Positions 5,170 through 47,515 are shown, counted from the first letter of the stretch. The stretch: DNA of 64,000 bases from Peptococcaceae bacterium (GCA_036303105.1 JAXJBF010000135.1:192-64191); one strand, 5' to 3'. A program made the numbers and translations. Notes: a model not told the origin generated them from the letters alone.

Positions 5170-5423
5170 TGTACGAAGCGCTTTTTCGTTGCCGTCATGC
5201 GCTCATAGGCTCTTTTGGCGTTGCAGTTGATACCGCTGACATACATACGCTCATCGGTCTTTTTATCATTGGAAACATACTGCAAGGCGGCGTAAAGATC
5301 GCTGTCCACATACCTTTTGTCGATGGTTTTATCGGGATTTTCCGCATAGTCGATCACTTCCTTCAGCCTGCTTTTCACAGGCCAACAGCCGGTAGTTGCC
5401 ACATCATACCACCAACCTTTCAC
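5166..5423 (-). pseudogene. N-terminal fragment of a MOB relaxase
   Basis: 85 aa, VKSRLKEVIDYAENPDKT..YVSGINC, typical of a relaxase N-terminus. Truncated far short of full length. Confidence 0.6.
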
Positions 5424-5706
5424 GCTTGGGCAGTATCAATTCTTCGGTAATACTATCAATAAGTGCGACAATTTTTTCTTCCGTGTCCACTGAGATTTTG
5501 CCTTCGCATACCACACAAAGTGCATCTAATTTATCATTGAAAGAGAAAAACACTTCAGGCAAAACGGCTCTCGGCATATATCCCAAAGCACGCTGGCGGA
5601 GATATTCCGATACGCTCAGACCGCACTTTTCGGCGTTATGCTTAATCAGTTTTTTCTCTTTTTCGCTGACACGGATAAATAGATTTTTGTTCTTTATTTC
5701 ATTCAT
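5404..5706 (-). CDS. mobC: MobC-family relaxosome accessory protein
   Basis: IRVSEKEKKLIKHNAEKCGLSVSEYLRQRALG ribbon-helix-helix motif. Overlaps the relaxase fragment. Confidence 0.8.
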   Translation of the reverse strand: MNEIKNKNLFIRVSEKEKKLIKHNAEKCGLSVSEYLRQRALGYMPRAVLPEVFFSFNDKLDALCVVCEGKISVDTEEKIVALIDSITEELILPKRERLVV

Positions 5707-6410: not shown

Positions 6411-6593
6411 TTATGGATTTGGCTTACTGACAACTTTAACTTGAAAATTTTGCACATCAATCAAAGTTTCTTGTTTGCATTTCGGACAGTAAATCGGAAA
6501 GTTCTTTATTTTTGTATCTTCCCGTACTTTTTCGTGCGTTTTTCTCCCGCAGACAGGACAGAGTATCCATTCTGTTTTTGTACCCATAAACAT
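6411..6593 (-). CDS. Cysteine-rich KTR domain protein
   Basis: CPVCGRKTHEKV..YCPKCKQETLIDV, two CxxC pairs. Start may be 6587. Confidence 0.8.
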   Translation of the reverse strand: MFMGTKTEWILCPVCGRKTHEKVREDTKIKNFPIYCPKCKQETLIDVQNFQVKVVSKPNP

Positions 6594-6605: not shown

Positions 6606-7472
6606 TTATAAATCGTCCAATACTGCGGCAATATCGCTGTTGATACAAACAGATTGCTTTTCGATTTCCTGAGGACAAAACGCCTCGCCGTAATTGATAC
6701 AAGCGTAAGTGGCATTCGGGTTTTTAGCTGTCATCTTCCAGAAAGGATATTTAATAATAACCGGCGTATTAGCGCCTACGCCAAGCTCCAGAAACAGAAT
6801 ATGCGAATTCTTGTGGCGGCAGATAAAATCATCGTAACGACTGGAAGCAGCATACCAGCCTTTATCCTGAACAAAGGTCATATCGCTGCGTAGGTTCATT
6901 GTCATCGGTGCTCCGCATACCGGACATTTAGGGATTAACTCTGTGGGGATTTTCATATCCTTTTGTTGGGCGACCATTTGACGGACAGATTTTTCATTGT
7001 CATAGGTTTTTTGATGGCAGGGCTTAGAGCATTGCCAAAGTCCGTAATCCCCCTGCGTATAGAACAGCCGCTTTTTATCAAAACCGGCAAGCTGAAACTG
7101 ATGATCCACATTGGTGGTAAGCACAAAATAATCCTTATCTTTTATCAGCATCAACAAGTCGGCATAGGGCTTTCCAACACCGACATCATAGCGATTTACA
7201 AAAATATGCCGCGACCACCACGCCCAATATTCCTCCAAGGTGTCATAGGGATAAAAACCGCCGGAATAAATATCCCGGATTCCGTATTTCTTATAGAAGT
7301 CTGAAAAATATCGTTCAAACCGTTCGCCATCATAGGTAAATCCTGCCGAAGTGGACATTCCCGCACCAGCGCCGACTACAATAGCGTCGGCCGTTTCAAT
7401 CTCATTTTTCAGTTTTTTAATTTGCCCCGAGTAATTCTCGATAGATTTTGTAGTCAATATCCTTGAAAACAT
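6606..7472 (-). CDS. Sirtuin, class-M-like (SirTM-type, putative protein ADP-ribosyltransferase)
   Basis: GAGAGMSTSAGF, TTNVDHQF, and FYTQGDYG where canonical sirtuins carry the catalytic His. Cys4 zinc ribbon. Overlaps the macrodomain gene by 56 nt. Confidence 0.85.
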   Translation of the reverse strand: MFSRILTTKSIENYSGQIKKLKNEIETADAIVVGAGAGMSTSAGFTYDGERFERYFSDFYKKYGIRDIYSGGFYPYDTLEEYWAWWSRHIFVNRYDVGVGKPYADLLMLIKDKDYFVLTTNVDHQFQLAGFDKKRLFYTQGDYGLWQCSKPCHQKTYDNEKSVRQMVAQQKDMKIPTELIPKCPVCGAPMTMNLRSDMTFVQDKGWYAASSRYDDFICRHKNSHILFLELGVGANTPVIIKYPFWKMTAKNPNATYACINYGEAFCPQEIEKQSVCINSDIAAVLDDL

Positions 7473-8196
7473 TAAAAATCACCTCAATTTCGCTGTGTGT
7501 TTGGGATTTGAAATCTTTTACGGTCTGAACAGCAATTTCTGCCGCCTTATCATTTGGGAAATGGAACTCACCCGTAGAAATACAGCAGAATGCAATACTC
7601 TTTACCCCGTTTTGCTCCGCCAGCTCCAAGCAGGAGCGATAGCAGGACGCAAGTGCATTTTTATCGCTCTTTGTAACCTGTTCCCCAATAATCGGACCGA
7701 CTGTGTGAATTACATACCGGCAGGGCAGATTAAAAGCAGGGGTAATTTTTGCTTTGCCCGTTTCTTCTTCGTGTCCCTGCTTTCTCATCAATTCTGCACA
7801 AGCCAGACGAAGCTGCACACCTGCAAAAGTGTGAATGGCATTGTCAATGCAGCCGTGATTCGGGTAAAAGCAGCCGAGCATTTGGCTGTTCGCCGCATTC
7901 ACAATAGCGCCGCACGCCAGCGTAGTAATATCGCCCTGCCAAAGATACAATCCCTGTTGGATCGCTTGTAAATCGGTAAGTCTCGTAACTCTTTTTCTAT
8001 GTATCTCCTCTTGCAAATAGGCATTCTGTACATCTAAAAATGCGTCATTGACAGGCAAGGGCATACGGATATTGAAAAGAGCGCGCAACAGGACTTTTTG
8101 TTCCTGCCCACTCGGTGGAATTTCGATTTTGGAATACTTTGGCTGCTCTTTTAACAGCTCCTGTATAAGAAATAATCTTCTTTCTATTTGTGTCAT
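7417..8196 (-). CDS. Macrodomain protein (protein-ADP-ribose hydrolase type)
   Basis: GDITTLACGAIVNAANSQMLG..GCIDNAIH..CCISTGEF macro motifs. Confidence 0.85.
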   Translation of the reverse strand: MTQIERRLFLIQELLKEQPKYSKIEIPPSGQEQKVLLRALFNIRMPLPVNDAFLDVQNAYLQEEIHRKRVTRLTDLQAIQQGLYLWQGDITTLACGAIVNAANSQMLGCFYPNHGCIDNAIHTFAGVQLRLACAELMRKQGHEEETGKAKITPAFNLPCRYVIHTVGPIIGEQVTKSDKNALASCYRSCLELAEQNGVKSIAFCCISTGEFHFPNDKAAEIAVQTVKDFKSQTHSEIEVIFNVFKDIDYKIYRELLGAN

Positions 8197-8197
8197 A

Positions 8198-8821
8198 TTA
8201 TCCTCTCTTTACGATCGCACGCATAGGACAGATTTCAAAACAGTTTCCGCAGTGCAGACAGTGATTCTGATTGATTACAACGGGCTTCACACTAATGTCA
8301 ATACATTTTTGCGGGCATTTAGAGTAACATAATTTGCAACCGATACATTTATCGGTTACATAATAACCCTCTTGAACTTCTTCTCTGCCGCCAAAAGCAA
8401 AATTGGCACGTTCGATTGGTTTTTTAGAAAGGTCGAACCATTCTCCGGTTCCCTCGTACAGTTGAAAAACTCGAATTGCGCTGCGAGATTCTTCCGTGGG
8501 ATAAATCTCATACATATAGGTGTTTTTATCAAACAGAGCTTTGGTATACTGCGTGTTCAGCTCCCGTACCTTACCACGCAGAGAAACTGCTGCGCTGGTC
8601 ATGGTATTTTCACCTTTTATGCCAGTCAGGGAAATATAACCTTGCTTTTTCAACCGTTTATAAAAGCTCTTTCCCTGTGCTGTGAGAAAGTATAAGCTGC
8701 TCTCATCGCTATCCATTATATCGATGGCACAAGTAACCGGCAGCCCTTGTTCATCCATCGTAGCAACAACAGTCGTATGAATTTCACGTGCGATGAATCG
8801 CAGGTAATCTTTTGCTTCCAT
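8198..8821 (-). CDS. PNPOx-like FMN-binding split-barrel domain fused to 2x[4Fe-4S] ferredoxin domain
   Basis: N-terminal PNPOx-like region. C-terminal CIGCKLCYSKCP and CLHCGNCFEICP motifs. Confidence 0.75.
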   Translation of the reverse strand: MEAKDYLRFIAREIHTTVVATMDEQGLPVTCAIDIMDSDESSLYFLTAQGKSFYKRLKKQGYISLTGIKGENTMTSAAVSLRGKVRELNTQYTKALFDKNTYMYEIYPTEESRSAIRVFQLYEGTGEWFDLSKKPIERANFAFGGREEVQEGYYVTDKCIGCKLCYSKCPQKCIDISVKPVVINQNHCLHCGNCFEICPMRAIVKRG

Positions 8822-8833
8822 AAAAGATTCCTC

Positions 8834-9284
8834 CTATTTGATACCCTTTAGAATGGGTGTAAGTTTTTTATAAATCAACATGGTAAAGACACTGATCGCA
8901 AGCCCTTTGAGCAAATTGAACGGGAAAGCGTTGTACAGCACTACATCGAGTTTGGTTTTGATAAAGGGGATAAATACGCCAAACGAGGCAATTACCTGAT
9001 CCAGCGGCATAAACTGTTCAAACATCGATAAAAGAACAAAGTAATTCATTATAGCAGACATAATCCCCTATTACACCGATTGTTGGGCCGAATGCAAATG
9101 CGCCAATCAGTGCTGGAAAATCCGACAAATCCATCTTTGCAAAGGACGGAGACAGTGGAACAGGACATTCAATAAAAGCAAGAACAAAAGATACAGCGGA
9201 AAGCATAGCCGTCATAGCCAGTGTTCGTGCATTGAAAATATTGGTTCTTTTTTGGGATATTGATTTAGATTGCGTGAACATCAT
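8834..9284 (-). pseudogene. ribU: ECF S-component, riboflavin type (RibU-like), split by a frameshift near 9018-9061
   Basis: ORFs 9018..9284 and 8834..9061 are consecutive parts of one S-component (DLSDFPALIGAFAFGP.. then ..NAFPFNLLKGLAISV). Directly downstream of the FMN riboswitch. Confidence 0.65.
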
Positions 9285-9323
9285 TTCATTCTCCTAACGA
9301 GATATGAATGGAATTAAGAGAAT

Positions 9324-9488
9324 CCCCGCAGATACCATCTGCTGTTACAGTTGGTCTGCGGGGAACCCTTTTCATATCTTCTTTCATCCGGACTTTACCG
9401 TCGGTAACGGAATCACACCGTTTCGGCCGCTTTGCGGTTCGCAGACTTTACTGCCGGTCAGGAATTTCACCATGCCCCGAAGATAAAT
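9324..9488 (-). promoter_or_regulatory. FMN riboswitch (RFN element) plus downstream hairpin
   Basis: Minus strand: UCUUCGGGGCAUGGUGAAAUUCCUGACCGGCAGUAAAGUCUGCGAACC...GGUGUGAUUCCGUUACCGACGGUAAAGUCCGGAUGAAAGAAGAU. Followed by CCCCGCAGA..UCUGCGGGG (9364-9324). Confidence 0.85.
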
Positions 9489-9502
9489 GGTAACCTACGA
9501 GA

Positions 9503-9904
9503 TTAGAATGAGTATTCTCTGGGCGGGTTGCCGGAAAAATCGGCAATAACAGCTTTGGCGTCGGCCAGATAGAACACCTCAAAAACTGGGTTGTCAGCGG
9601 TCTGGTAATTTCCCTTTACAATCGGGTTTTTAAGAGCCGCTTCCTTGATGGCCTTATCGTCCACGAAGGTTGCCTTGCCGCTGATACGAATCCACTCATA
9701 GGAAGGAGAGGAAATACAGATTTCCACATACGGATTCTCCTGCATATCCTTATAAACATCTTTCTGATTGCCGGTATTGAACCAGAGCTTTCCGTCCTTT
9801 TCAAAGCTGAACATAAACGGGCGGCATTTGGCCTTTCCGTCACGACCTACGGTTGCGAGATACTGTACGGGGTTTGCCTCTAAAAATTTGGATACTTCTG
9901 ACAT
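9503..9904 (-). CDS. Pyridoxamine 5'-phosphate oxidase family (FMN-binding) protein
   Basis: NPVQYLATVGRDGKAKCRPF..LWFNTGNQKDVYKDM pattern. AAAGGAGG RBS. Confidence 0.8.
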   Translation of the reverse strand: MSEVSKFLEANPVQYLATVGRDGKAKCRPFMFSFEKDGKLWFNTGNQKDVYKDMQENPYVEICISSPSYEWIRISGKATFVDDKAIKEAALKNPIVKGNYQTADNPVFEVFYLADAKAVIADFSGNPPREYSF

Positions 9905-9968
9905 GGTGAATGTCCTCCTTTAATGATATGAATTTACTGCTTTTAGAAAGCAGTAAAATGCGTGTTGA

Positions 9969-10598
9969 TTACTTTCTGACAACGCTGATACGCTGCTGAA
10001 TATGATTTCCTTTGGTAATTTCATCGACCATAGCGATCGCATAGTCTGCATAGCTGATAATGCTTTCACCGCGGCTGTTCAACGTGAGTTCCTCGCCTGC
10101 GAGAATGTACTCGCCGGTTCTCTCGCCATCAGCTTGGAAATCTCCAGCAGGGCTGATAAATGTCCACTGTACATCGTTTCTCTTACGCAGTTCCTCAAGC
10201 GCCTTGCCCTGTGCTTTCGCAAGCGGCAAAAACTGCGGCGGGAAATCCGGACCATCGGATACAACGGCGGTATGCTCCGGGTTGACATACAGGCTGCCTG
10301 CGCCGCCTACAACCACCAAGCGAATCTTTTTGCCGGAAAGGATATCGCAGAGGTGCATCAGGGACTTGGTGTGATTGGGGAGTTCTTCCTCCGCCCAAGC
10401 GCCGAAAGCGTCCACAACGACATCAAAGCCTTCCAAATCTGCTGTAGTCAGATCAAACAAATCCTTGCAGATATATTTTTCTGCTGCCGATTCATTCTTG
10501 CCCTTTGCAATCGCCGTTACATCCAGCCCTCTGTCGATAGCTTCTTTCACGACTAACCTGCCAACTCTGCCATTTGCACAAACTACTGCCACTTTCAT
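9969..10598 (-). CDS. NAD(P)H-binding (NmrA/atypical SDR-like) oxidoreductase
   Basis: MKVAVVCANGRVGRLVVKEA Rossmann N-terminus. Confidence 0.8.
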   Translation of the reverse strand: MKVAVVCANGRVGRLVVKEAIDRGLDVTAIAKGKNESAAEKYICKDLFDLTTADLEGFDVVVDAFGAWAEEELPNHTKSLMHLCDILSGKKIRLVVVGGAGSLYVNPEHTAVVSDGPDFPPQFLPLAKAQGKALEELRKRNDVQWTFISPAGDFQADGERTGEYILAGEELTLNSRGESIISYADYAIAMVDEITKGNHIQQRISVVRK

Positions 10599-10794
10599 TT
10601 CGAATACCTCCAGTAAATTATTTTTGTTGTAAGCCTCTCGATTACAACCGAATTATAGCACGGCATCGTTGTAATGTAAATGCTTACAACGAAATTTTTT
10701 AAAAAAATTTTTCCACCTGCCGTCACGATGTAATCGTTTACATTACACCGAATTTTGCTTATAATGATACCGATAGAAATGTGAGGTGGCTTAT

Positions 10795-11223
10795 ATGCAA
10801 TTTTCTTCAAGACTCCCGGTTGCCGTACATATATTGCTGGCAATCGTTGAATTTGAGGGCAAGGAAAAGACAACATCTACATTCCTTGCCGGAAGTGTCA
10901 ATGTAAATCCCGTTATTATACGAAATACTTTGGGACAGTTGAAAACAGCCGGACTTGTTACGGTAAAAGCCGGAGAAGGGGGGGCGTCCCTTGCGAAAGA
11001 TCCGAAGGACATCACTCTGATGGATATTTTTAATGCTGTCGAGAAAAAGGAAGCGCTATTCCATTTTCACGAAAATCCAAACCCGGAATGTCCCGTTGGT
11101 AAAAATGTTCATGCCGTACTGGATTGCAGGTTGGCTGCTATACAGGAGACAATGCAGCGACAAATGAAATCTATTACCTTGCAAGATTTAATCAACGACA
11201 TGGACGGTATGCTCGCACAGTAG
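10795..11223 (+). CDS. Rrf2-family transcriptional regulator
   Basis: MQFSSRLPVAVHILLAI..NPVIIRNTLGQLKTAGLV. Start set at the ATG after the GAGGTGG RBS. TATAAT at about 10761. Confidence 0.85.
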   Translation: MQFSSRLPVAVHILLAIVEFEGKEKTTSTFLAGSVNVNPVIIRNTLGQLKTAGLVTVKAGEGGASLAKDPKDITLMDIFNAVEKKEALFHFHENPNPECPVGKNVHAVLDCRLAAIQETMQRQMKSITLQDLINDMDGMLAQ

Positions 11224-11480: not shown

Positions 11481-11855
11481 TTATGCAAAAATCACTTCTG
11501 CATTCACGATTTCCGCAGCCGCTTCACGCAGCACATTCATCTTTCCAACCCACTTCATCGGATTTTTTGCCTTTAGCTGTTCGGTTATGCCCTCGCGCTC
11601 CGCCATCTGTTCCACCAGCCGAAGAAACATATCTTCCGCCTGCTCGTCAATATCTGCAAGATAACTGTTCAACTTGCCGCTTGTGAGCAGGTTGGTATAA
11701 AGCACCTTGCGGTGCTGTTGGAAATAGCGCAGGTGCCGCTGTCCCCATATCCCTATGGGCTTATTTTCTTCGGCGGGTAAAAGGAGATTCGGTAAGTAAT
11801 AGTCACCTTGCCGTGTATAAGTGCCGCCCATCTGTTCAAGTATTGTCTTTTTCAT
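11481..11855 (-). CDS. tnpV: TnpV-like transposon protein
   Basis: MKKTILEQMGGTYTRQGDYYLPNLLLP..IGIWGQRH, resembling Tn4451-family TnpV. Confidence 0.8.
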   Translation of the reverse strand: MKKTILEQMGGTYTRQGDYYLPNLLLPAEENKPIGIWGQRHLRYFQQHRKVLYTNLLTSGKLNSYLADIDEQAEDMFLRLVEQMAEREGITEQLKAKNPMKWVGKMNVLREAAAEIVNAEVIFA

Positions 11856-11859
11856 AACC

Positions 11860-12063
11860 TTAAACCTCTGTGATTCTAATTTTGAATTTCTTAACAGGTG
11901 CATTGACTACTTTGATTAGAACATCATCTACTGCGTCCGTATATCTGCCTTCTGCCAGCAGATTGTTCCGCAGCGCATTAAGAGCATTTAATATTATTCT
12001 CCGTTCGTTTTCATCAATCGCTATGTAGTGTTTTGATTTCGCATATCCGTTTACTTCCTTCAT
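11860..12063 (-). CDS. Small hypothetical protein 4 nt upstream of tnpV
   Basis: 67-aa ORF. From memory, commonly seen next to TnpV in Clostridia elements; function unknown. Confidence 0.5.
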   Translation of the reverse strand: MKEVNGYAKSKHYIAIDENERRIILNALNALRNNLLAEGRYTDAVDDVLIKVVNAPVKKFKIRITEV

Positions 12064-41316: not shown

Positions 41317-42201
41317 TTATCCTCCCATGCGTTTCAGCAGCTGCTTTATACATTCGCCAATGTCACTGTCCATGCAAATCGACTGGTGCTCGATCTCTTT
41401 TGGGCAAACCGCCTGGCCGTAATTGAGACAGGCATAAATAGCTCTGGAGTTTCTCGCTGTCATTTGCCAAAACGGATATTTGATAATGACAGGCGTGTTA
41501 TACCCTACGCCAAGTTCCAGAAACAAAATGCGCTGGCCGTTTCTTGTCTGTAAAAAGTTTTCGTAGCGTTCTGCTGCCCGGTTCCACCCTTCGCCCTCCA
41601 CAAATGTATCATCGGAACGTAGATTCATCGTCAGTGGTTTCCCGCAGTGGGGACATTGGGGAACAAGACCCGAGGGGATTCTCATGTCTTTTTGCGTCTC
41701 CACCATACGGCGGACAGCGCCTTCATTATCCCAGGTTTTCTGACAGCAAGGCTCAGAACACTGAAACAGTCCGTAATCTCCCTGGGTATAAAAAAGGCGC
41801 TTCTTATCAAAGCCGGCTTTCTGAAATTGGTGGTCTACATTGGTTGTGATAACGAAATAGTCCTTCTCCCTGACAAGGGACAGAAGAGCGTTGTATACGC
41901 TTTTCGGTGCGCTCATATAACGGTTGACATAGATGTATCGGCTCCAGTATGCCCAAAACTCTTCTGGTGTGTTGTAAGGATAGAAACCACCGGAATACAT
42001 ATCGTGAAACCCGTATTTCTCCTCGAAATCAGAAAAATACTTTTTGAAACGCTCACCATCGTAGACAAACCCCGCCGAAGTTGACAGACCTGCACCAGCA
42101 CCGATCACAAGGCAATCCGCATTTTCAATGGCTGCTTGCAGCCGTTCCATTTGATTCGAGTAATTTTCGATAGATCTTGTAATCGACATCCTTGAAAACA
42201 T
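41317..42201 (-). CDS. Sirtuin, class-M-like (second copy)
   Basis: Roughly 65% identical by eye to 6606..7472. Same GAGAGLSTSAGF, TTNVDHQF, FYTQGDYG motifs. Start set at the shared MFSR. Confidence 0.8.
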   Translation of the reverse strand: MFSRMSITRSIENYSNQMERLQAAIENADCLVIGAGAGLSTSAGFVYDGERFKKYFSDFEEKYGFHDMYSGGFYPYNTPEEFWAYWSRYIYVNRYMSAPKSVYNALLSLVREKDYFVITTNVDHQFQKAGFDKKRLFYTQGDYGLFQCSEPCCQKTWDNEGAVRRMVETQKDMRIPSGLVPQCPHCGKPLTMNLRSDDTFVEGEGWNRAAERYENFLQTRNGQRILFLELGVGYNTPVIIKYPFWQMTARNSRAIYACLNYGQAVCPKEIEHQSICMDSDIGECIKQLLKRMGG

Positions 42202-42320
42202 TAAACAGCACCTCCATTTCACTGTGCTCTTACCGCAGATGGTTTTTTGCAGTGGCTACGGCAATTTTTGAAGCAAGTAAATGCTCTTTCTGAGGGCATC
42301 GTATCGTCCCCTGTTTTTTG
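42125..42320 (-). pseudogene. Decayed 3' remnant of a macrodomain gene
   Basis: Reverse translation gives ..LLASKIAVATAKNHLR*EHSEMEVLFNVFKDVDYKIY.. versus ..AAEIAVQTVKDFKSQTHSEIEVIFNVFKDIDYKIY in gene 7417..8196. In-frame TAA at 42230-42232. The 5' part is replaced by the nitroreductase gene. Confidence 0.55.
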
Positions 42321-42322
42321 AT

Positions 42323-42901
42323 TTATTCAATGATTCTGCTTCTGTTTGCTTTTCTCGGTTTTGCAGCTGGATATTCGCCTTTGCAGTATCCCAGCAAAAC
42401 AAAACAGCACGCCACATAATTTTCGGGGATGTCCCATTCTTTCAGCAAAGCAGCACCGATCTCATTAGCAAAGGTTTCCTCGCCTCTTGCCACGATGCAG
42501 GAGGAAACCCCAAGGGCGGCGGCAGCCAAAACCATATTTTCTGCGCAGCAGAAGGCGTCCGGAATGCTGTACAGAAAATTTTTGGGTCCGAAGATCACGC
42601 ATACGGCAGGCGCACCGTAAAATCCGCTTTTCATGGACGGATCATCGATAATACTCGGCTGATCTTTGGAAACATAGCTTCCTGCCAATCTTGAACGGTC
42701 AAACCGGGCAATGTTTAATTTGCCGATTTTTTCGGCCAGTTCCGCATTCCGTATGCCGACGATCTTGCTTCGCTGTCCGCCCCCGGCATTGGGGGCATAC
42801 AGTCCGGCTTCTATGATGGCTTCCAGGGTTTCCCGGTCTACCTGCTTTTCTTCGTACCTGCGGATCGAGCGGCGATGCTTCATCAGTTCCAGAATGTCCA
42901 T
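42323..42901 (-). CDS. Nitroreductase-family (FMN) oxidoreductase
   Basis: RRSIRRYEEKQV..LYAPNAGGGQ.. family pattern. Confidence 0.85.
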   Translation of the reverse strand: MDILELMKHRRSIRRYEEKQVDRETLEAIIEAGLYAPNAGGGQRSKIVGIRNAELAEKIGKLNIARFDRSRLAGSYVSKDQPSIIDDPSMKSGFYGAPAVCVIFGPKNFLYSIPDAFCCAENMVLAAAALGVSSCIVARGEETFANEIGAALLKEWDIPENYVACCFVLLGYCKGEYPAAKPRKANRSRIIE

Positions 42902-42902
42902 C

Positions 42903-43538
42903 TCATTTACACCCCTTTTCGTCCCCGTGTGAGACTTTCAGGTTTTTGAAAAATCCCTCGGTGCCAATATCCACAAAAAGCGCAATGCTGCCCTTGGCAT
43001 CTGCTCGGCCTTTCATGTCCTCCACACTGAGGACATTTACGCCGTTTGTATAGAGCTTGCCCTGCGTACCGTCTACCTCGATCCTAACGTGAATCCACTC
43101 GTCCAGGCCAATGTCCGCGGGGGCCTCGTATTTTGTAATGCCCTTTGCCCGGAAATACGCAAAGGTATAGTTGGGATAGGAGAAGTACTCAACGGCATGG
43201 GCGCGCCGTTCGGGGTCATCACATCTTCCGTTGGCCGGGCGGAGATAGAAGCACTCAAACGGTCCGTCGCTTTCCGGCACGCGAAACGCAATCCCGATGA
43301 AGCCTCGGGCAAGATCCGGCGCATCCGGTAGAATACGGCTGCACACATCCACTTCAATCACACCGTTGTGAAAGTCGCAGTCAGGTACAACGGCACAGCT
43401 TCTCAGACCATATTCATTCTCCCTCACGTTCTTGACAACCCGGACAACCGGCTCTCCGTCAAGAATGACGTCACGCACAGCGACAAGGCTGGGTAATAGC
43501 GTTTTTTGGTTTATTAAAATCGGTTCTAAAATCTCCAT
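42903..43538 (-). CDS. Concanavalin-A-like lectin/glucanase-fold protein (DUF1080/LamG-like), no signal peptide
   Basis: FHNGVIEVDV..GFIGIAFRV..WIHVRIEVDG..LYTNG pattern. The ATG shares one base with the rSAM stop. Confidence 0.5.
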   Translation of the reverse strand: MEILEPILINQKTLLPSLVAVRDVILDGEPVVRVVKNVRENEYGLRSCAVVPDCDFHNGVIEVDVCSRILPDAPDLARGFIGIAFRVPESDGPFECFYLRPANGRCDDPERRAHAVEYFSYPNYTFAYFRAKGITKYEAPADIGLDEWIHVRIEVDGTQGKLYTNGVNVLSVEDMKGRADAKGSIALFVDIGTEGFFKNLKVSHGDEKGCK

Positions 43539-44572
43539 TACTTTATCTCCTTCCAACATTGGGGGTCTGGGCTGTAAAAATCGCCGTTGGTGCCTTTTGC
43601 AACCGCCGGACAGCCCCGGCAATAGGCCAGCAGCTCACATTTGGCGCATTTTTCAAACTTGGTATAGTCGCGGTATGCCTCTATCTGGCAAACCCACACA
43701 TCTGCCAGACGATCCTGAAATACGTTTCCCACCTTGCTCTCTGCCACCCGGCGGCAGGCATACACATCCCCTGTGGGAAGAATGGTAATGTGGCAGTTGC
43801 CGCAGTTGCAGCCACCGTAAATTACACCTTCCTCTGCGGAAGCAGGAATCTGGAACTCCCCGGTTTCATACTCATACAGTGTCCAAAGATGGTCTTTTTT
43901 GTTGAAGTAGGTATTACAGCCTTCCGCTTCGTATTTTTTGAACTTCTGATCGCACACGGTAAGCAGATCGCGGTATTCCTGCGGTGTCATACTGGCATCC
44001 AGATCCCCGCCGCTGGGAACATACCGGGAAAAAGCAAACACATTGGCGCCGGCTTTTACCACCGCGTCAATAATGCCCGGCACTTCCATGCGGTTTGTTT
44101 TGGAAACCGTTGTCATGATCACGCTTCGGATGCCGGCACGGTTGATGCAGCCGATTTTTTCCAGCGTACAGTCATAGGAGCCGGGCTTGCGGAACCAGTC
44201 ATGGGTTTCACGAAGGCCGTCAATGGAAAGCTGATATTTTTCGCAGCCGTAATGTTTCAGTTCGGCGCACACCTGATCGTTCAGGTGGAATGGATTTCCG
44301 AGAATTGTAAAAGGCACTTTGTGTTCATGCAGCAAATCCAATAAGTGCCAAAAATCAGGGTGCAGAATTGGATCGCCGCCTGTAATATAGAAATACGGCA
44401 GGCGATGATACACTTTGCAAAAGTCCAGGCAATTGTAAAAAGTGTCTTCCATCTGCTTCCAGGTCATGGAATCGATCTTTTTGCAGGCATCACTCGAAAA
44501 AATGTAGCAATGTTTGCACCGCTGATCACATTCATCCGTGATGTGCCACTGAAAAGAAAAATACTGCCTCAT
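43538..44572 (-). CDS. Radical SAM/SPASM peptide maturase (ACGX-system type)
   Basis: CDQRCKHC CxxxCxxC motif. C-terminal Cys-rich SPASM region (GGCNCGNC..CAKC..CRGC). Confidence 0.85.
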   Translation of the reverse strand: MRQYFSFQWHITDECDQRCKHCYIFSSDACKKIDSMTWKQMEDTFYNCLDFCKVYHRLPYFYITGGDPILHPDFWHLLDLLHEHKVPFTILGNPFHLNDQVCAELKHYGCEKYQLSIDGLRETHDWFRKPGSYDCTLEKIGCINRAGIRSVIMTTVSKTNRMEVPGIIDAVVKAGANVFAFSRYVPSGGDLDASMTPQEYRDLLTVCDQKFKKYEAEGCNTYFNKKDHLWTLYEYETGEFQIPASAEEGVIYGGCNCGNCHITILPTGDVYACRRVAESKVGNVFQDRLADVWVCQIEAYRDYTKFEKCAKCELLAYCRGCPAVAKGTNGDFYSPDPQCWKEIK

Positions 44573-44622
44573 GTTCTTTTTACCTCGCTTTATATTAAAT
44601 CGGTTTCACCGAGCTATACTTC

Positions 44623-44655
44623 AAAAATTCCCGACGAGAGAGTGCTCGCCGGGAA
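44623..44655 (-). terminator. Attenuator-type hairpin between precursor and maturase
   Basis: TTCCCGGCGAG/CTCGTCGGGAA (one mismatch) followed by TTTTT on the minus strand. Confidence 0.6.
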
Positions 44656-44682
44656 TGGTTTTAGGAACCAAGCGCTTGAGAT

Positions 44683-44865
44683 TTATTGATCCCCAGCGCC
44701 GCAGGCTGAACCGCAAGCAACAGGTTTTTCTTCTGACTTATCAGAAGCACCGCAGGCAGAACCACAAGCGGCAGATTTTTCTTCCGGCTTATCAGAAGCA
44801 CCGCAAGCAGCAGCAGGAGCAGTTTTCTCTTCCTTGTTCCATCCAAACAAATTTGAAAGTGCCAT
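44683..44865 (-). CDS. ACGX-repeat precursor peptide
   Basis: MALSNLFGWNKEEKTAPAAACGASDKPEEKSAACGSACGASDKSEEKPVACGSACGAGDQ. Five Cys, all in an ACG(A/S) context. GGAGGA RBS. Confidence 0.75.
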   Translation of the reverse strand: MALSNLFGWNKEEKTAPAAACGASDKPEEKSAACGSACGASDKSEEKPVACGSACGAGDQ

Positions 44866-45119
44866 GGTTGTTTCCTCCATATCATTTATTCAGGGAAATG
44901 CTTTCCCTCTGTGGTTCTTATTGTACGGAGACTTTTTTCTCGCAACAAGTACGCACTTTTTTATAACCCAGTCACCTTTTTATAACCTTTGCGCTGTAAC
45001 GAGGAAATCGGACGAAAATTTTATAATATTTGCTCCTACTATTGCTGCAAAAGTAAACTTAAATTATAATTTGATGTAACATTCAATTATGATCTAACAT
45101 GCATTTGGAGGTGTTGCTT

Positions 45120-45467
45120 ATGCGAACAAAAGCAGAATTACCGGAATGCCCAGTTGCAACAACCGTACAGCTAATCGGCAACAAATGGAAACTACTGATT
45201 ATAAGAAATCTTCTTCACCGGCCATGGCGGTTTAACGAACTCAAAAGAGATCTGGACGGAATCAGTCAAAAAGTATTGACCGACAGTCTGCGTTCTATGG
45301 AGAAAGACGGAATCATCACCCGTACAGTATATCCTGAAGTACCACCACGAGTAGAATATGCACTAAGTGAATTGGGAGAGACCATGAGACCCATTCTTGC
45401 TTCCATGGAACAATGGGGAACAGATTACAAAGCTTCATTGACACAAAATAATATCGATCCAAAATAA
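45120..45467 (+). CDS. HxlR-family winged-helix regulator
   Basis: CPVATTVQLIGNKWKLLIIRNL..PPRVEYALSELG. Confidence 0.85.
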   Translation: MRTKAELPECPVATTVQLIGNKWKLLIIRNLLHRPWRFNELKRDLDGISQKVLTDSLRSMEKDGIITRTVYPEVPPRVEYALSELGETMRPILASMEQWGTDYKASLTQNNIDPK

Positions 45468-45518
45468 AAGCACAAGGAAGCAATGCTTTCTATCATTGCT
45501 TCTTTGTGCTCAGACTGT

Positions 45519-45557
45519 AAAAACCTATCTTGGCAAAAATGCCAAGATAGGTTTTTC
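45519..45557. terminator. Bidirectional terminator
   Basis: AACCTATCTTGGC/GCCAAGATAGGTT with A- and T-runs. Confidence 0.7.
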
Positions 45558-45637
45558 TTCATTTGTCGCTTCTGTTGATGACATTTTCAACAAACTAAAG
45601 CGCCTGCTTTCCCAAAAAGAAAACAGGCGCTCTGTCT

Positions 45638-47515
45638 TTATTCGCCAATGGCGTTGCCGGTGTAGAGCTGGTAGTAGCGTCCTTTTTCGGCAAGGAGTTC
45701 GTCGTGGGTGCCGCGTTCGATGATGCGGCCTTGCTCGAGAACCATGATGCAATCGGCATTTTTAACGGTGGACAGTCGGTGGGCGATGACGAAGGTGGTG
45801 CGTCCCTTCATGAGGGCATCCATGCCTTGCTGCACCAAGCTTTCAGTGCGGGTGTCGATGGACGAGGTGGCCTCGTCGAGAATGAGCACCGGTGGGTCGG
45901 CAACGGCCGCACGCGCAATCGCCAACAGCTGGCGCTGCCCTTGGCTGAGGCTGTCGCCATCCCCAGTAAGCATGGTGTCGTAGCCATCCGGCAAGCGGCG
46001 AATGAAGCCATCGGCATTGGCGAGCTTGGCCGCTGCAATGCACGCGTCATCGCTGGCATCCAGCCGCCCGTAGCGAATGTTTTCCATAACGGTGCCTGTG
46101 AACAGGTGCGTATCCTGGAGCACAATGCCCAGGCTGCGGCGCAGGTCGGCCTTGCAAATCTTGTTAATATTGATGCCGTCATAGCGGATCTTGCCGTCGC
46201 TGGTGTCATAAAAACGGTTGATGAGGTTCGTGATCGTGGTCTTACCAGCACCTGTGCTGCCAACAAAAGCGATCTTCTGTCCTGGCGTGGCATAGAGCTT
46301 GATGTTGTGGAGGATGGTTTTTTCTGGCACATAGCCGAAGTCCACATCGTCAAAGACAATGTCGCCTTCCAGCTTAACCAGTTGGAAACCGCCGTCCTGC
46401 TGCGGCACTTTCCAGGCCCAAATACCTGTGGCAGCAGCGGTTTCGCACAAGTTGCCCGATGGGTCTTCGCTGACATTGACAAGGGTGACATTGCCTTCGT
46501 CCACTTCCGGCGCTTCATCAAGCAGCGCAAAAATACGCTGAGCGCCAGCCATGGCCATGGCGATGGCATTTAGCTGCTGGCTGATGTGAGCCACTGGCAT
46601 GGAAGCGTTTTTGTTCAGCGTCAGGAAGGACACCAAGGTGCCCAGTGTCAGGCCGGCATAGCCGCCAAGGGCAAAGACCGCACCAACCACAGCACAGAGC
46701 ACGTAGCTGATGTTCCCAATGTTAGCGTTGACTGGCATGGCAATGTTGGCAAAGGTGTTGGCCTTATCGGCACTCGTGCGCAAAACATCGTTAAGGCGGC
46801 TGAAGTCCTCCTTTGCCGCTTCTTCATGGCAGAAAACCTTGACGACTTTCTGCCCATCCATCATTTCTTCGATGAAGCCATTGACGATACCAAGGTCACG
46901 CTGCTGCTCCGCAAAATACGCAGCCGATTTGGCAGCAATGCGTGTGGTCACAAAAAGCATGATGACGATCATGGCAATCGTCAAAATGGTCAGCGGGATG
47001 TCGAGGATGAACATGCTGACAAAGGTGCAGACAATGGTGATGGTTGAGTTGATCAGCTGCGGAATGCTCTGGCTGATGCACTGACGCAGCGTGTCGACGT
47101 CGTTGGTATAAACGGACATGATGTCGCCGTGGGCATGAGTGTCAAAATAACGGATCGGCAGCGACTCCATGTGTTTGAACAATTCAATGCGCAGACGGCG
47201 CAGTGTGCCTTGGCTGACAGAAACCATGATGCGGTTGTAGCCATAGGCACAAAGCACACCCAGGGCATAGGTCGCAGCCAACGAACAAAGAGCACCGGCA
47301 AGCGCCGAAAAATCTGGTGATTGAGACTGGGTCAACGGCACAATGTAATCGTCGATGAGCGACTGCATGAACAGGGTTCCGCGCAAGGTCGCCAACACGG
47401 TACCAATGATGCAGAGCACAACAAGCGTAAACGCAATTTTATAATTATGCAGCACATACGCCAGCACGCGCTTCATGGCCGTAAGCTGCTGACGTGTGGT
47501 CATTGTTTTTTTCAT
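45638..47515 (-). CDS. ABC exporter, fused permease/ATPase subunit
   Basis: Six-TM domain plus GSTGAGKTT, LSQGQRQ, ILDEATS. Confidence 0.9.
   Translation of the reverse strand: MKKTMTTRQQLTAMKRVLAYVLHNYKIAFTLVVLCIIGTVLATLRGTLFMQSLIDDYIVPLTQSQSPDFSALAGALCSLAATYALGVLCAYGYNRIMVSVSQGTLRRLRIELFKHMESLPIRYFDTHAHGDIMSVYTNDVDTLRQCISQSIPQLINSTITIVCTFVSMFILDIPLTILTIAMIVIMLFVTTRIAAKSAAYFAEQQRDLGIVNGFIEEMMDGQKVVKVFCHEEAAKEDFSRLNDVLRTSADKANTFANIAMPVNANIGNISYVLCAVVGAVFALGGYAGLTLGTLVSFLTLNKNASMPVAHISQQLNAIAMAMAGAQRIFALLDEAPEVDEGNVTLVNVSEDPSGNLCETAAATGIWAWKVPQQDGGFQLVKLEGDIVFDDVDFGYVPEKTILHNIKLYATPGQKIAFVGSTGAGKTTITNLINRFYDTSDGKIRYDGININKICKADLRRSLGIVLQDTHLFTGTVMENIRYGRLDASDDACIAAAKLANADGFIRRLPDGYDTMLTGDGDSLSQGQRQLLAIARAAVADPPVLILDEATSSIDTRTESLVQQGMDALMKGRTTFVIAHRLSTVKNADCIMVLEQGRIIERGTHDELLAEKGRYYQLYTGNAIGE

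Follow-up and report, generated by a model that had tools for sequence, protein, structure and literature searches.

We analysed a 64,000-nucleotide stretch of one strand of DNA from a Peptococcaceae bacterium (GCA_036303105.1 JAXJBF010000135.1:192-64191), referred to below as the window, which carries an ACGX system: a gene for a short cysteine-repeat peptide directly 5' of a gene for a radical S-adenosylmethionine (SAM)/SPASM enzyme. An initial annotation, made from the sequence alone, had described the pair as an uncharacterised cluster resembling those for peptides that are made on ribosomes and modified after translation (RiPPs). Its observation was confirmed, and its interpretation is supported with a shifted emphasis. 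The conserved context of the pair, comprising a divergent HxlR-type regulator, reductases and, in part of the loci, a Zn-macrodomain protein (Zn-Macro) and a class-M sirtuin (SirTM), recasts ACGX as a candidate cytoplasmic stress module instead of a presumed antibiotic-like RiPP. In gut and rumen anaerobes the ACGX enzymes form a large, conserved family, for which we found no published function. Full-text searches of the literature returned no paper on the product, the reaction or the function of an ACGX system and, as far as the literature could be searched, no member appears to have been studied experimentally. The system could reveal a new radical SAM reaction on cysteine, repeated many times along one peptide.

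The ACGX precursor peptide and its radical SAM enzyme

The precursor gene (44683 to 44865, minus strand) codes for a 60-residue peptide, MALSNLFGWNKEEKTAPAAACGASDKPEEKSAACGSACGASDKSEEKPVACGSACGAGDQ, identified by its homologues and by its match to TIGR04341 (target_ACGX), against which it scored 72.4 bits (E = 3.6e-20; curated cut-off 28 bits). A GGAGG lies 8 nt 5' of the ATG and the N-terminal leader reads MALSNLFGWNKEEK; an upstream ATG would give 65 residues, but the homologues begin MALSNL. The leader MALSNLFGW is followed by five ACG[AS] units with acidic, lysine- and proline-containing linkers, and the peptide ends in ACGSACGAGDQ. All five cysteines sit in an ACG[AS] context, exactly as the initial annotation had read this 60-residue peptide and its leader. 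The core duplication of about 51 nt that it had reported was also found, as two tandem copies with 84% identity (44695 to 44796, minus strand; copies at 44695-44745 and 44746-44796). Each copy codes for SDK(P/S)EEK(S/P)(A/V)ACGSACGA. Read by hand, the copies differ at eight sites, three of them in the ACGSACGA part, all synonymous, and five in the linker, where three residues are changed.

The enzyme gene (43538 to 44572, minus strand) lies on the same strand, 110 nt from the peptide gene, and its 344-residue product matched TIGR04340 (rSAM_ACGX) over the entire profile (1-341 of 341) with 593.2 bits (E = 1.5e-178; curated cut-off 400 bits). Since both curated cut-offs were passed, the pair belongs to the ACGX system as the family itself is defined, and the family names given in the initial annotation, for which it had proposed a search with hidden Markov models (HMMs), proved to be the right ones. 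The CxxxCxxC plus SPASM architecture it had described was likewise borne out by Pfam (PF04055, 69.4 bits; PF13186, 32.5 bits) as well as by TIGR04340. The SAM-cluster motif CDQRCKHC occupies residues 15-22 and the Pfam SPASM domain residues 255-321, and the C-terminal third contains nine invariant cysteines (C255, C257, C260, C273, C309, C312, C318, C321, and C339). Only 14 residues precede the SAM-cluster motif, which leaves no room for an N-terminal RiPP recognition element (RRE) domain.

We then compared 72 distinct homologous peptides with a total of 469 cysteines. The leader consensus is M-A-L-S-N-L-x-G-W, with M1, L3, and W9 invariant in all 72 peptides as in a RiPP-type leader, and the first cysteine falls near residue 18. 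Cysteine number varies from 2 to 10 per peptide, and the core is composed almost exclusively of A, G, C, P, K, E, D, S, and T. The cysteine context is nearly constant, with Ala at position -1 in 97% of cases, Gly at +1 in 99.6%, A/S/T at +2 and A/G/S at +3. Position +4 is taken by Asp (259), Glu (18) or the cysteine of a second unit (175), which together account for 452 of the 469 cysteines; when the cysteines with a second Cys after them are set aside, Asp or Glu follows at +4 in 277 of 294. Most peptides end in ACG[ST]ACGA[GAS]DK. The entropy at the three codon positions was 0.62/0.44/1.16 for the leader and, for 142 ACG[ST]ACGA motifs, 0.13/0.08/1.52, and this concentration of variation at third positions indicates that the peptide is translated. 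An AGGAGG is also kept 5' of the peptide start across homologues.

After TIGR04340, the best-scoring NCBIfam model for the enzyme was SbtM (156.6 bits), followed by AhbD and NirJ at about 100 to 110 bits, with the thioether synthase models PapB (65 bits), StsB (58 bits), and SkfB (46 bits) lower. The match to SbtM (TIGR04082, cut-off 350 bits) covers profile positions 198-515 only, the N-terminal domain being absent, and the PapB score is below the 340-bit cut-off of NF047865; the enzyme is thus not a member of the SbtM or the PapB family. A sequence search of the PDB returned only the distant SkfB and CteB (CteB, E = 1e-6). The AlphaFold2 model of the enzyme was poor, with a mean predicted local distance difference test score of 65.8 and values below 50 in the SPASM part, and with this model Foldseek retrieved generic radical SAM cores (SkfB, BlsE, SuiB, LipA, and anSME) at template modelling scores of about 0.5. 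SbtM converts Cys or Sec into a thio(seleno)oxazole with the loss of four hydrogens (PMC11002830). Of the characterised enzymes, SbtM comes nearest by HMM score; a related cysteine-centred oxidation is therefore favoured for the ACGX enzyme, and a PapB-like Cys-x3-Asp thioether would be the main alternative chemistry.

Two side observations concern the enzyme gene and its relatives. A long ORF (43559-44344, plus strand, 261 aa) runs antisense to the enzyme gene and reaches 362-431 aa in other loci (L001, L011, L069, and L080); it is probably an effect of codon composition. Six relatives of the enzyme (P0130, P0133, P0134, P0140, P0159, and L174) carry N-terminal extensions of 270-470 aa, and no Pfam domain was matched in the extensions of these 620-810-aa proteins. 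One extended relative has a second radical SAM gene after it.

Distribution of the family

Relatives of the ACGX enzyme formed 3550 clusters (90% identity) at E <= 1e-30, the best 120 being 75-86% identical to it. A library clustered at 50% identity contains the family as essentially one cluster, and the next relatives are 35-56% identical. By scanning species-representative genomes, we found at least 585 ACGX loci and retained 80 for comparison. Their enzymes are 76-86% identical to that of the window, and their hosts are mainly Lachnospiraceae, Oscillospiraceae, Monoglobus, Solobacterium, and Catenibacterium metagenome-assembled genomes (MAGs) of gut and rumen origin, along with a few bins from other phyla. 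Butyrivibrio sp. FC2001 is one isolate that carries the system (protein P0025). Such strong conservation is unusual for a RiPP maturase. Its extent across Lachnospiraceae, Oscillospiraceae, Monoglobus, and Erysipelotrichales-type MAGs fits a physiological role and not one in warfare. Five loci (L037, L050, L051, L079, and L086) with 78-82% identical enzymes came from bins that bear the labels Succinivibrio, Sphaerochaetaceae, Mailhella, Flexilinea, and Schwartzia, reflecting either horizontal transfer across phyla or binning errors.

A more distant enzyme (P0127, 46% identity, 430 bits on TIGR04340) adjoins another peptide, MKGLDRFSYWEEE...QCNCGGDCNSECGEGECNDGGCNI (L167:540-728). This peptide has an L..F..W leader resembling MALSNLFGW and a cysteine-rich, acidic, metallothionein-like core, QCNCGGDCNSECGEGECNDGGCNI, and its gene is flanked by two genes for TehB-like methyltransferases. 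The pair may be a sister system.

Conserved operon context

To survey gene neighbourhoods, as the initial annotation had proposed, ORFs were called in 81 loci, the window included, then clustered, and the clusters annotated. Upstream features were counted in the 66 loci with at least 1.2 kb of upstream DNA and downstream genes in the 53 loci with at least 4.5 kb of downstream DNA on the same strand, termed full-length here. The survey brought out a context of HxlR, reductases, Zn-Macro, and SirTM in a conserved order: the HxlR gene is divergent, and the peptide gene is followed by a stem-loop, the radical SAM gene, a gene for a nitroreductase or a zinc-dependent alcohol dehydrogenase (Zn-ADH), a PNPOx/ferredoxin gene, Zn-Macro, and SirTM. 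The boundaries first given to the cluster were therefore too short, since the nitroreductase and the class-M sirtuin that follow belong to the conserved context. A homologous peptide was encoded upstream of the enzyme in 64 of the 66 loci and a divergent HxlR in 63. Downstream, a flavin or FeS reductase of some kind was present on the same strand in 51 of the 53 loci. A nitroreductase-family (including Fer4-fused) or Zn-ADH-family reductase occurred in 45, a PNPOx-like protein with two [4Fe-4S] clusters (PNPOx-Fer4) in 36, a SIR2-like (SirTM) protein in 32 and a macrodomain protein in 28. The genes of the operon are typically a few bases apart or overlapping. Among the protease, exporter, and transporter families, none recurred in more than five of the 81 loci, and neither a GcvH-like carrier nor a lipoate-protein ligase was found among their conserved neighbour clusters. 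This context of reductases, SirTM, and HxlR, together with this lack of a conserved protease or exporter, argues against a standard secreted natural product.

In the window, the nitroreductase-family flavoenzyme (42323 to 42901, minus strand; 192 aa; PF00881, 82.7 bits) belongs to a subfamily found in 31 of the 53 full-length loci. This subfamily and that of the Zn-ADH were absent from 77 SirTM loci without ACGX, so both subfamilies appear, from these co-occurrences, to travel with ACGX. A 56%-identical radical SAM enzyme of another lineage also adjoins a nitroreductase. The nitroreductase was also considered as an azoline dehydrogenase of the SagB/McbC type, a role set aside as it gave only weak matches to generic nitroreductase, BluB, and FbiB models and none to a SagB-type model.

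Between the enzyme and the nitroreductase, the window carries a gene for a DUF1080/3-keto-disaccharide-hydrolase-like (ConA-like) protein (42903 to 43538, minus strand; 211 aa; PF06439, 36.5 bits with a cut-off of 26.8). The initial annotation had singled out this protein as an unusual extra, cytoplasmic and coupled to the maturase. The gene is indeed present, its ATG shares an A with the stop codon of the enzyme gene (TAATG), and the protein has no signal peptide; the nitroreductase ATG follows 1 nt past its stop. However, it is not a characteristic partner, being found in only 3 of the 81 loci (the window, L008, and L040) and 2 of the 53 full-length loci, with the same synteny in two close relatives (L169 and L170). 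The family also occurs in unrelated contexts, for instance between prmC and recA, and one homologue in an unrelated context is 54% identical. A role as a core partner was rejected for these reasons, and the gene is best read from its distribution as a lineage-specific insert after the radical SAM gene. No sequence match to the protein was found in the PDB.

An ABC exporter pair is encoded just upstream of the window operon. It was dismissed as a dedicated exporter because it has no C39 peptidase domain and accompanies ACGX in at most three loci.

Regulator, predicted promoter and RNA stem-loops

The divergent HxlR regulator noted in the initial annotation was borne out as an HxlR/DUF24-type (MarR-like) protein (PF01638, 111.6 bits) encoded on the plus strand by an ORF at 45099-45467. 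Its likely start is the ATG at 45120, which is preceded by a GGAGG and agrees with where homologues begin. The protein has a single N-terminal cysteine, in CPVATTV, and this cysteine is kept in 69 of 69 ACGX-linked HxlR proteins and is their sole cysteine in 60. The DUF24/HxlR members YodB, CatR, HypR, and QorR sense diamide, quinones, hypochlorite or aldehydes via that cysteine, and regulators of this group control nitroreductases, azoreductases, and a quinone oxidoreductase under thiol stress (PMC3351151). In one locus (L003:1417-9892), an insert of about 8 kb with genes for a serine recombinase, Mob_Pre, RepA_N, and a major facilitator superfamily (MFS) protein parts HxlR from the peptide. 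The contig carries the same radical SAM protein as L001, a sister contig in which the same element sits downstream of the operon (compared at L001:9041-9892).

The intergenic region contains operator-like conserved DNA, GGTTATAAAAAGGTGACTGGGTTATAAAAAAGTGCGTACTTG (44946 to 44987, minus strand), which overlaps the -35 region of the peptide promoter. The 8-mers AGTACGCA and AAGTACGC, counted on either strand, each occurred in 58 of 63 HxlR-peptide intergenic regions. When 44 regions were aligned on the peptide ATG, the motif AAAAAGTGCGTACTTG fell about 90 nt 5' of the ATG and overlapped a -35-like hexamer, with an GGTTACAAAAAGGTRAC(C) element preceding the motif in most loci. The predicted -10 hexamer of the peptide/radical SAM promoter, TACAAT (44920 to 44925, minus strand), lies 17 nt 3' of TTGTTG, and hexamers resembling TACAAT or TATAAT keep the same register across the aligned loci. 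The alignment also shows an apparent stem-loop within the 5' leader of the mRNA for the peptide, CAGAGGGAAAGCATTTCCCTG then AATA (44891 to 44911, minus strand). In most aligned loci, a CAGRGRGC...GCYCYCTGAATA arrangement (GCYCYCTG 3' arm) occurs with differing stem sequences, as judged by eye.

The spacer between the peptide and enzyme genes folds into a hairpin with a 12-bp stem and a 6-nt loop followed by UUUUU (44627 to 44656, minus strand), with a folding energy of -32.4 kcal/mol and a z score of -2.9 for the spacer. A strong hairpin (score >=24; shuffled mean 14.4) was present in 54 of 68 loci, the shuffled mean of no locus reached 24, and pairing was kept over 64 distinct arm sequences. 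A T-run follows the hairpin in only 6 of the 68 loci, the window among them. It is therefore the stem-loop that is conserved and not a canonical terminator, and of the leaky terminator first proposed at this site, the hairpin with its U5 stands for the window but not as a terminator conserved across the family. RNAalifold predicted no pairs on the spacer alignment, which was too gappy, and no Rfam family reached the threshold in a scan of 42200-45700.

SirTM, Zn-Macro and a second cassette

The sirtuin gene of the window operon (41317 to 42201, minus strand, ATG at 42201) codes for a 294-residue homologue of the protein ADP-ribosyltransferase SirTM. It aligned with Streptococcus pyogenes SirTM (PDB 5a3a) over residues 23-292 (E = 1.8e-66). 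Class-M sirtuins have QG in place of the catalytic His, and the window protein shows this motif as TQGDYG, aligned to IQGEYG of the S. pyogenes enzyme. Related loci have a Macro gene that runs into the start of SirTM, and an intact Zn-Macro/SirTM pair is present in 28 of 53 related operons. A representative Zn-Macro from the ACGX loci matched that of Staphylococcus aureus (PDB 5kiv) with E = 3.4e-74, including the N-terminal helical bundle. The window operon has no intact Zn-Macro adjoining SirTM. A C-terminal remnant (aa 215-262) remains at 42140 to 42295 on the minus strand (tblastn with a Zn-Macro of an ACGX locus, 42% identity over 52 aa, E = 3.8e-8). It lies between the genes for the nitroreductase and SirTM and shows that the operon has lost a macrodomain gene by deletion, probably along with the PNPOx-Fer4 gene. 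By its gene content, the window operon appears to be a derived version in which the ConA-like gene was gained, the macrodomain lost and SirTM kept.

A second, unlinked cassette was identified in the window by tblastn and ORF calling (6606 to 8821, minus strand), with genes for PNPOx-Fer4 (8198-8821), Zn-Macro (7417-8196), and SirTM (6606-7472). It lies 34 kb from the ACGX operon and has no linked ACGX peptide. Its Macro and PNPOx-Fer4 showed 66% and 37% identity, respectively, by tblastn, and the two SirTM copies of the window are 65% identical to each other. Its neighbours within 6606-11223 code for a PNPOx-like protein (9503-9904), an NAD(P)H-binding protein (9969-10598), and a divergent Rrf2 regulator (10786-11223, plus strand), and two short ORFs beside it (8834-9284) resemble a split RibU-type transporter. 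Genes for a NikA-like mobilisation protein (5404-5706), Cys_rich_KTR (6411-6593), and TnpV (11481-11903) flank the cassette, which thus appears to sit on an integrated mobile element as cargo.

When metagenomes were searched with a SirTM alignment headed by this unlinked copy, only 3 of the 80 loci obtained carried the ACGX radical SAM gene. Most of these SirTM-centred loci have a divergent HxlR, then flavin or detoxification genes that vary between loci (PNPOx-like, NAD(P)H-binding, SnoaL-like, MBL-fold, and RibU), followed by PNPOx-Fer4, Zn-Macro, and SirTM, and their HxlR proteins share 75-86% identity with the ACGX-linked HxlR. The gene orders suggest a modular picture, in which an HxlR promoter drives a swappable front module, one version being {peptide, radical SAM, nitroreductase/Zn-ADH}, and in which {PNPOx-Fer4, Zn-Macro, SirTM} would be a frequent back module.

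Operons of GcvH-L, LplA2, Zn-Macro, SirTM, and a flavin oxidoreductase have been tied to oxidative stress, and SirTM ADP-ribosylates Asp27 of GcvH-L only after lipoylation (PMC4518038, PMC11490716). GcvH-L is the sole known SirTM target, and for SirTM pairs that lie outside the GcvH-L operon the targets are explicitly described as unknown (PMC11490716).

Proposed role and competing explanations

We tentatively favour, with a probability of about 0.4, a role in which the radical SAM enzyme modifies each cysteine of the A-C-G units and the intracellular product serves a thiol or electrophile stress response. Thiol-reactive oxidants or electrophiles would act on HxlR, by analogy with YodB, HypR, and QorR, and turn the operon on, and the stem-loop would let the short peptide message exceed the enzyme message. 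The enzyme would dock on the leader without an RRE and proceed along the repeats, abstracting a hydrogen from each cysteine of the invariant A-C-G, with an SbtM-like thiooxazole (-4 H per Cys) as the likeliest outcome. The product would be neither cut nor exported and would act in the cytoplasm as a multivalent, sulfur-based scavenger in redox, electrophile or metal chemistry. The co-encoded NAD(P)H/flavin reductases would complete or recycle this product, and SirTM and Zn-Macro, where present, may gate the response by reversible ADP-ribosylation, as in the lipoyl-GcvH-L operon.

Several points weigh against this proposal. The expression, modification, and inducibility that it supposes are inferred from sequence, and the favoured chemistry is drawn from a ranking of HMM scores in which the enzyme fails the SbtM cut-off (157 vs 350 bits). 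The enzyme also lacks the N-terminal extension of SbtM, and the Asp or Glu at Cys+4 (277 of 294 non-dyad cysteines) suits a PapB-type Cys-x3-Asp thioether at least equally. A lack of linked exporters and proteases still allows export by unlinked genes. The rarity of ACGX in SirTM loci (3 of 80) indicates that the SirTM/Macro cassette works without it. Finally, many of the source genomes are MAGs, and some of the apparent spread across phyla may come from faulty binning or from one cassette having been transferred a few times, in which case there would be fewer independent observations.

A conventional RiPP of the ranthipeptide type is possible but on the whole unlikely. The enzyme would join cysteine sulfur to an Asp or Glu carbon at C-G-x-x-[D/E] in PapB-like thioether rings, and the mature peptide, possibly released as a set of small rings after cleavage in the DKPEEKP linkers, would leave the cell through unlinked or adjacent transporters as a signal or an antimicrobial. 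The layout of precursor then maturase with a conserved leader is what such a RiPP would show, and the multi-copy core recalls multi-core precursors. PapB, CteB, and SkfB are detectable relatives of the enzyme, but the PapB model gave 65 bits where 340 are needed, less than SbtM, AhbD, and NirJ. Likewise, 452 of the 469 cysteines are followed at +4 by D (259), E (18) or Cys (175), yet the first cysteine of each ACG[ST]ACG dyad (175 cysteines) has no acidic partner at that position, and three peptides end in ...ACGA, so that their last unit has no Cys+4 residue of any kind. The ABC exporter pair just upstream in the window could serve export, but it is without C39 and found in at most three loci, and no protease or exporter is conserved in the 81 loci. 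Enzyme identities of 76-86% across families are atypical of antimicrobial RiPPs, and the genes kept alongside the pair encode reductases and a regulator of the stress type.

A role in metal handling seems improbable to us. In it, the repeated cysteines, unmodified or turned into thiooxazoles, would bind Cu(I), Zn or other thiophilic metals in the cytoplasm, so that the peptide would resemble a metallothionein or a bufferin-like thiooxazole metallophore. The neighbourhood speaks against it: no CsoR, CopY, ArsR, MerR, metal ATPase or metal chaperone was among the conserved neighbours, the HxlR family is known for sensing oxidants, electrophiles, and aldehydes, and NAD(P)H reductases would be unexpected beside a metal sponge. 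The peptide itself is more favourable, as its core, with 12% cysteine, combines CxxxC dyads with neighbouring carboxylates and has the look of an intrinsically disordered chain. The relationship to SbtM hints at thiooxazoles, which are copper ligands in bufferin-type RiPPs, and the 46%-identical enzyme adjoins the peptide with the metallothionein-like core.

The modified ACGX peptide might also be a SirTM substrate, a poly-thiol carrier comparable to lipoyl-GcvH-L, with ADP-ribose placed on the Asp at Cys+4 and removed by Zn-Macro. Of the 53 complete operons, 32 contain SirTM and 28 contain Zn-Macro, in a fixed order and with overlapping genes, and the two kinds of operon run parallel, each with a carrier, a sulfur-modifying enzyme, two flavin oxidoreductases, Macro, and SirTM. 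Asp27 of GcvH-L is modified only after lipoylation, and other SirTM targets are explicitly unknown (PMC11490716), which makes the ACGX peptide a candidate second target beside GcvH-L. However, ACGX is present in only 3 of the 80 SirTM loci, most of which have other flavoprotein genes between HxlR and PNPOx-Fer4, and this asymmetric co-occurrence keeps the peptide as a SirTM target a minority view, which we hold to be very doubtful. In addition, the Asp or Glu at Cys+4 is kept equally well whether an operon contains SirTM (94%) or lacks it (92%), and the window operon has lost its macrodomain. An equally slim prospect is that the matured peptide combines the roles of a multivalent sulfur carrier, a stress-inducible cytoplasmic redox or electrophile buffer, and a second class of SirTM/Zn-Macro substrate, modified on the Asp at Cys+4, in gut Clostridia. 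If true, such a substrate would be the peptide counterpart of lipoyl-GcvH-L. We know of no low-molecular-weight thiol of the glutathione or bacillithiol type in these bacteria.

An anti-phage defence function found no support, as PADLOC gave no match for SirTM, Macro, the nitroreductase, the ConA-like protein or HxlR, and its only match for the radical SAM enzyme was a generic core similarity to pVip (48.7 bits).

Comparison with known systems

The window locus agrees with the defined ACGX system (TIGR04340/TIGR04341) in that both cut-offs are passed, the peptide is encoded directly 5' of the enzyme and the cysteines lie in ACG[AS]. This definition covers the pair only, whereas the window locus adds the ConA-like insert and lacks Zn-Macro. 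Among characterised enzymes, SbtM of Geobacter lovleyi belongs to the best-scoring family after ACGX, aligns over the radical SAM/SPASM part and also acts on Cys or Sec of a small peptide. Unlike the ACGX enzyme, SbtM has an N-terminal extension of about 200 aa, and the ACGX substrate has many repeated cysteines and no selenocysteine.

The ranthipeptide or sactipeptide synthases PapB (freyrasin), CteB (SCIFF), and SkfB are also radical SAM/SPASM enzymes for cysteine-rich peptides. In freyrasin, PapB acts on six Cys-x3-Asp motifs, a repeat comparable to the acidic Cys+4 residue of 277 of the 294 non-dyad ACGX cysteines, and SCIFF, like ACGX, is broadly conserved in Clostridia. Nevertheless, the similarity of the enzymes is weak, and ACGX differs in having no RRE, no acidic acceptor for the first cysteine of each dyad, and a context of reductases and a stress-type regulator.

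In Staphylococcus and Streptococcus, the extended SirTM operon (GcvH-L, LplA2, Zn-Macro, SirTM, and the oxidoreductases OYE and LLM) shares with the ACGX loci true homologues of SirTM and Zn-Macro. Both arrangements also place a small sulfur-bearing carrier, a putative role in ACGX, in one operon with its modifying enzyme and two flavin-type oxidoreductases. However, the ACGX loci have no GcvH-L or LplA, their carrier would be a cysteine-repeat peptide and its modifier a radical SAM enzyme, and their reductases are of the nitroreductase, Zn-ADH or PNPOx-Fer4 types. The DUF24/HxlR regulons (YodB-azoR1/yodC, HypR-hypO, and QorR-qorA) resemble ACGX in the divergent HxlR with its sensor cysteine and in the nearby nitroreductase or quinone-oxidoreductase-type Zn-ADH, but in ACGX the peptide and the radical SAM gene stand between promoter and reductase, and DNA binding and inducers are predicted by analogy. 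ACGX represents a variant of radical SAM/SPASM peptide maturation and not a SirTM operon of the GcvH-L type. Its context is unusual for such a variant, with no conserved protease or exporter and, in their place, a stress regulator, reductases, and an ADP-ribosylation pair.

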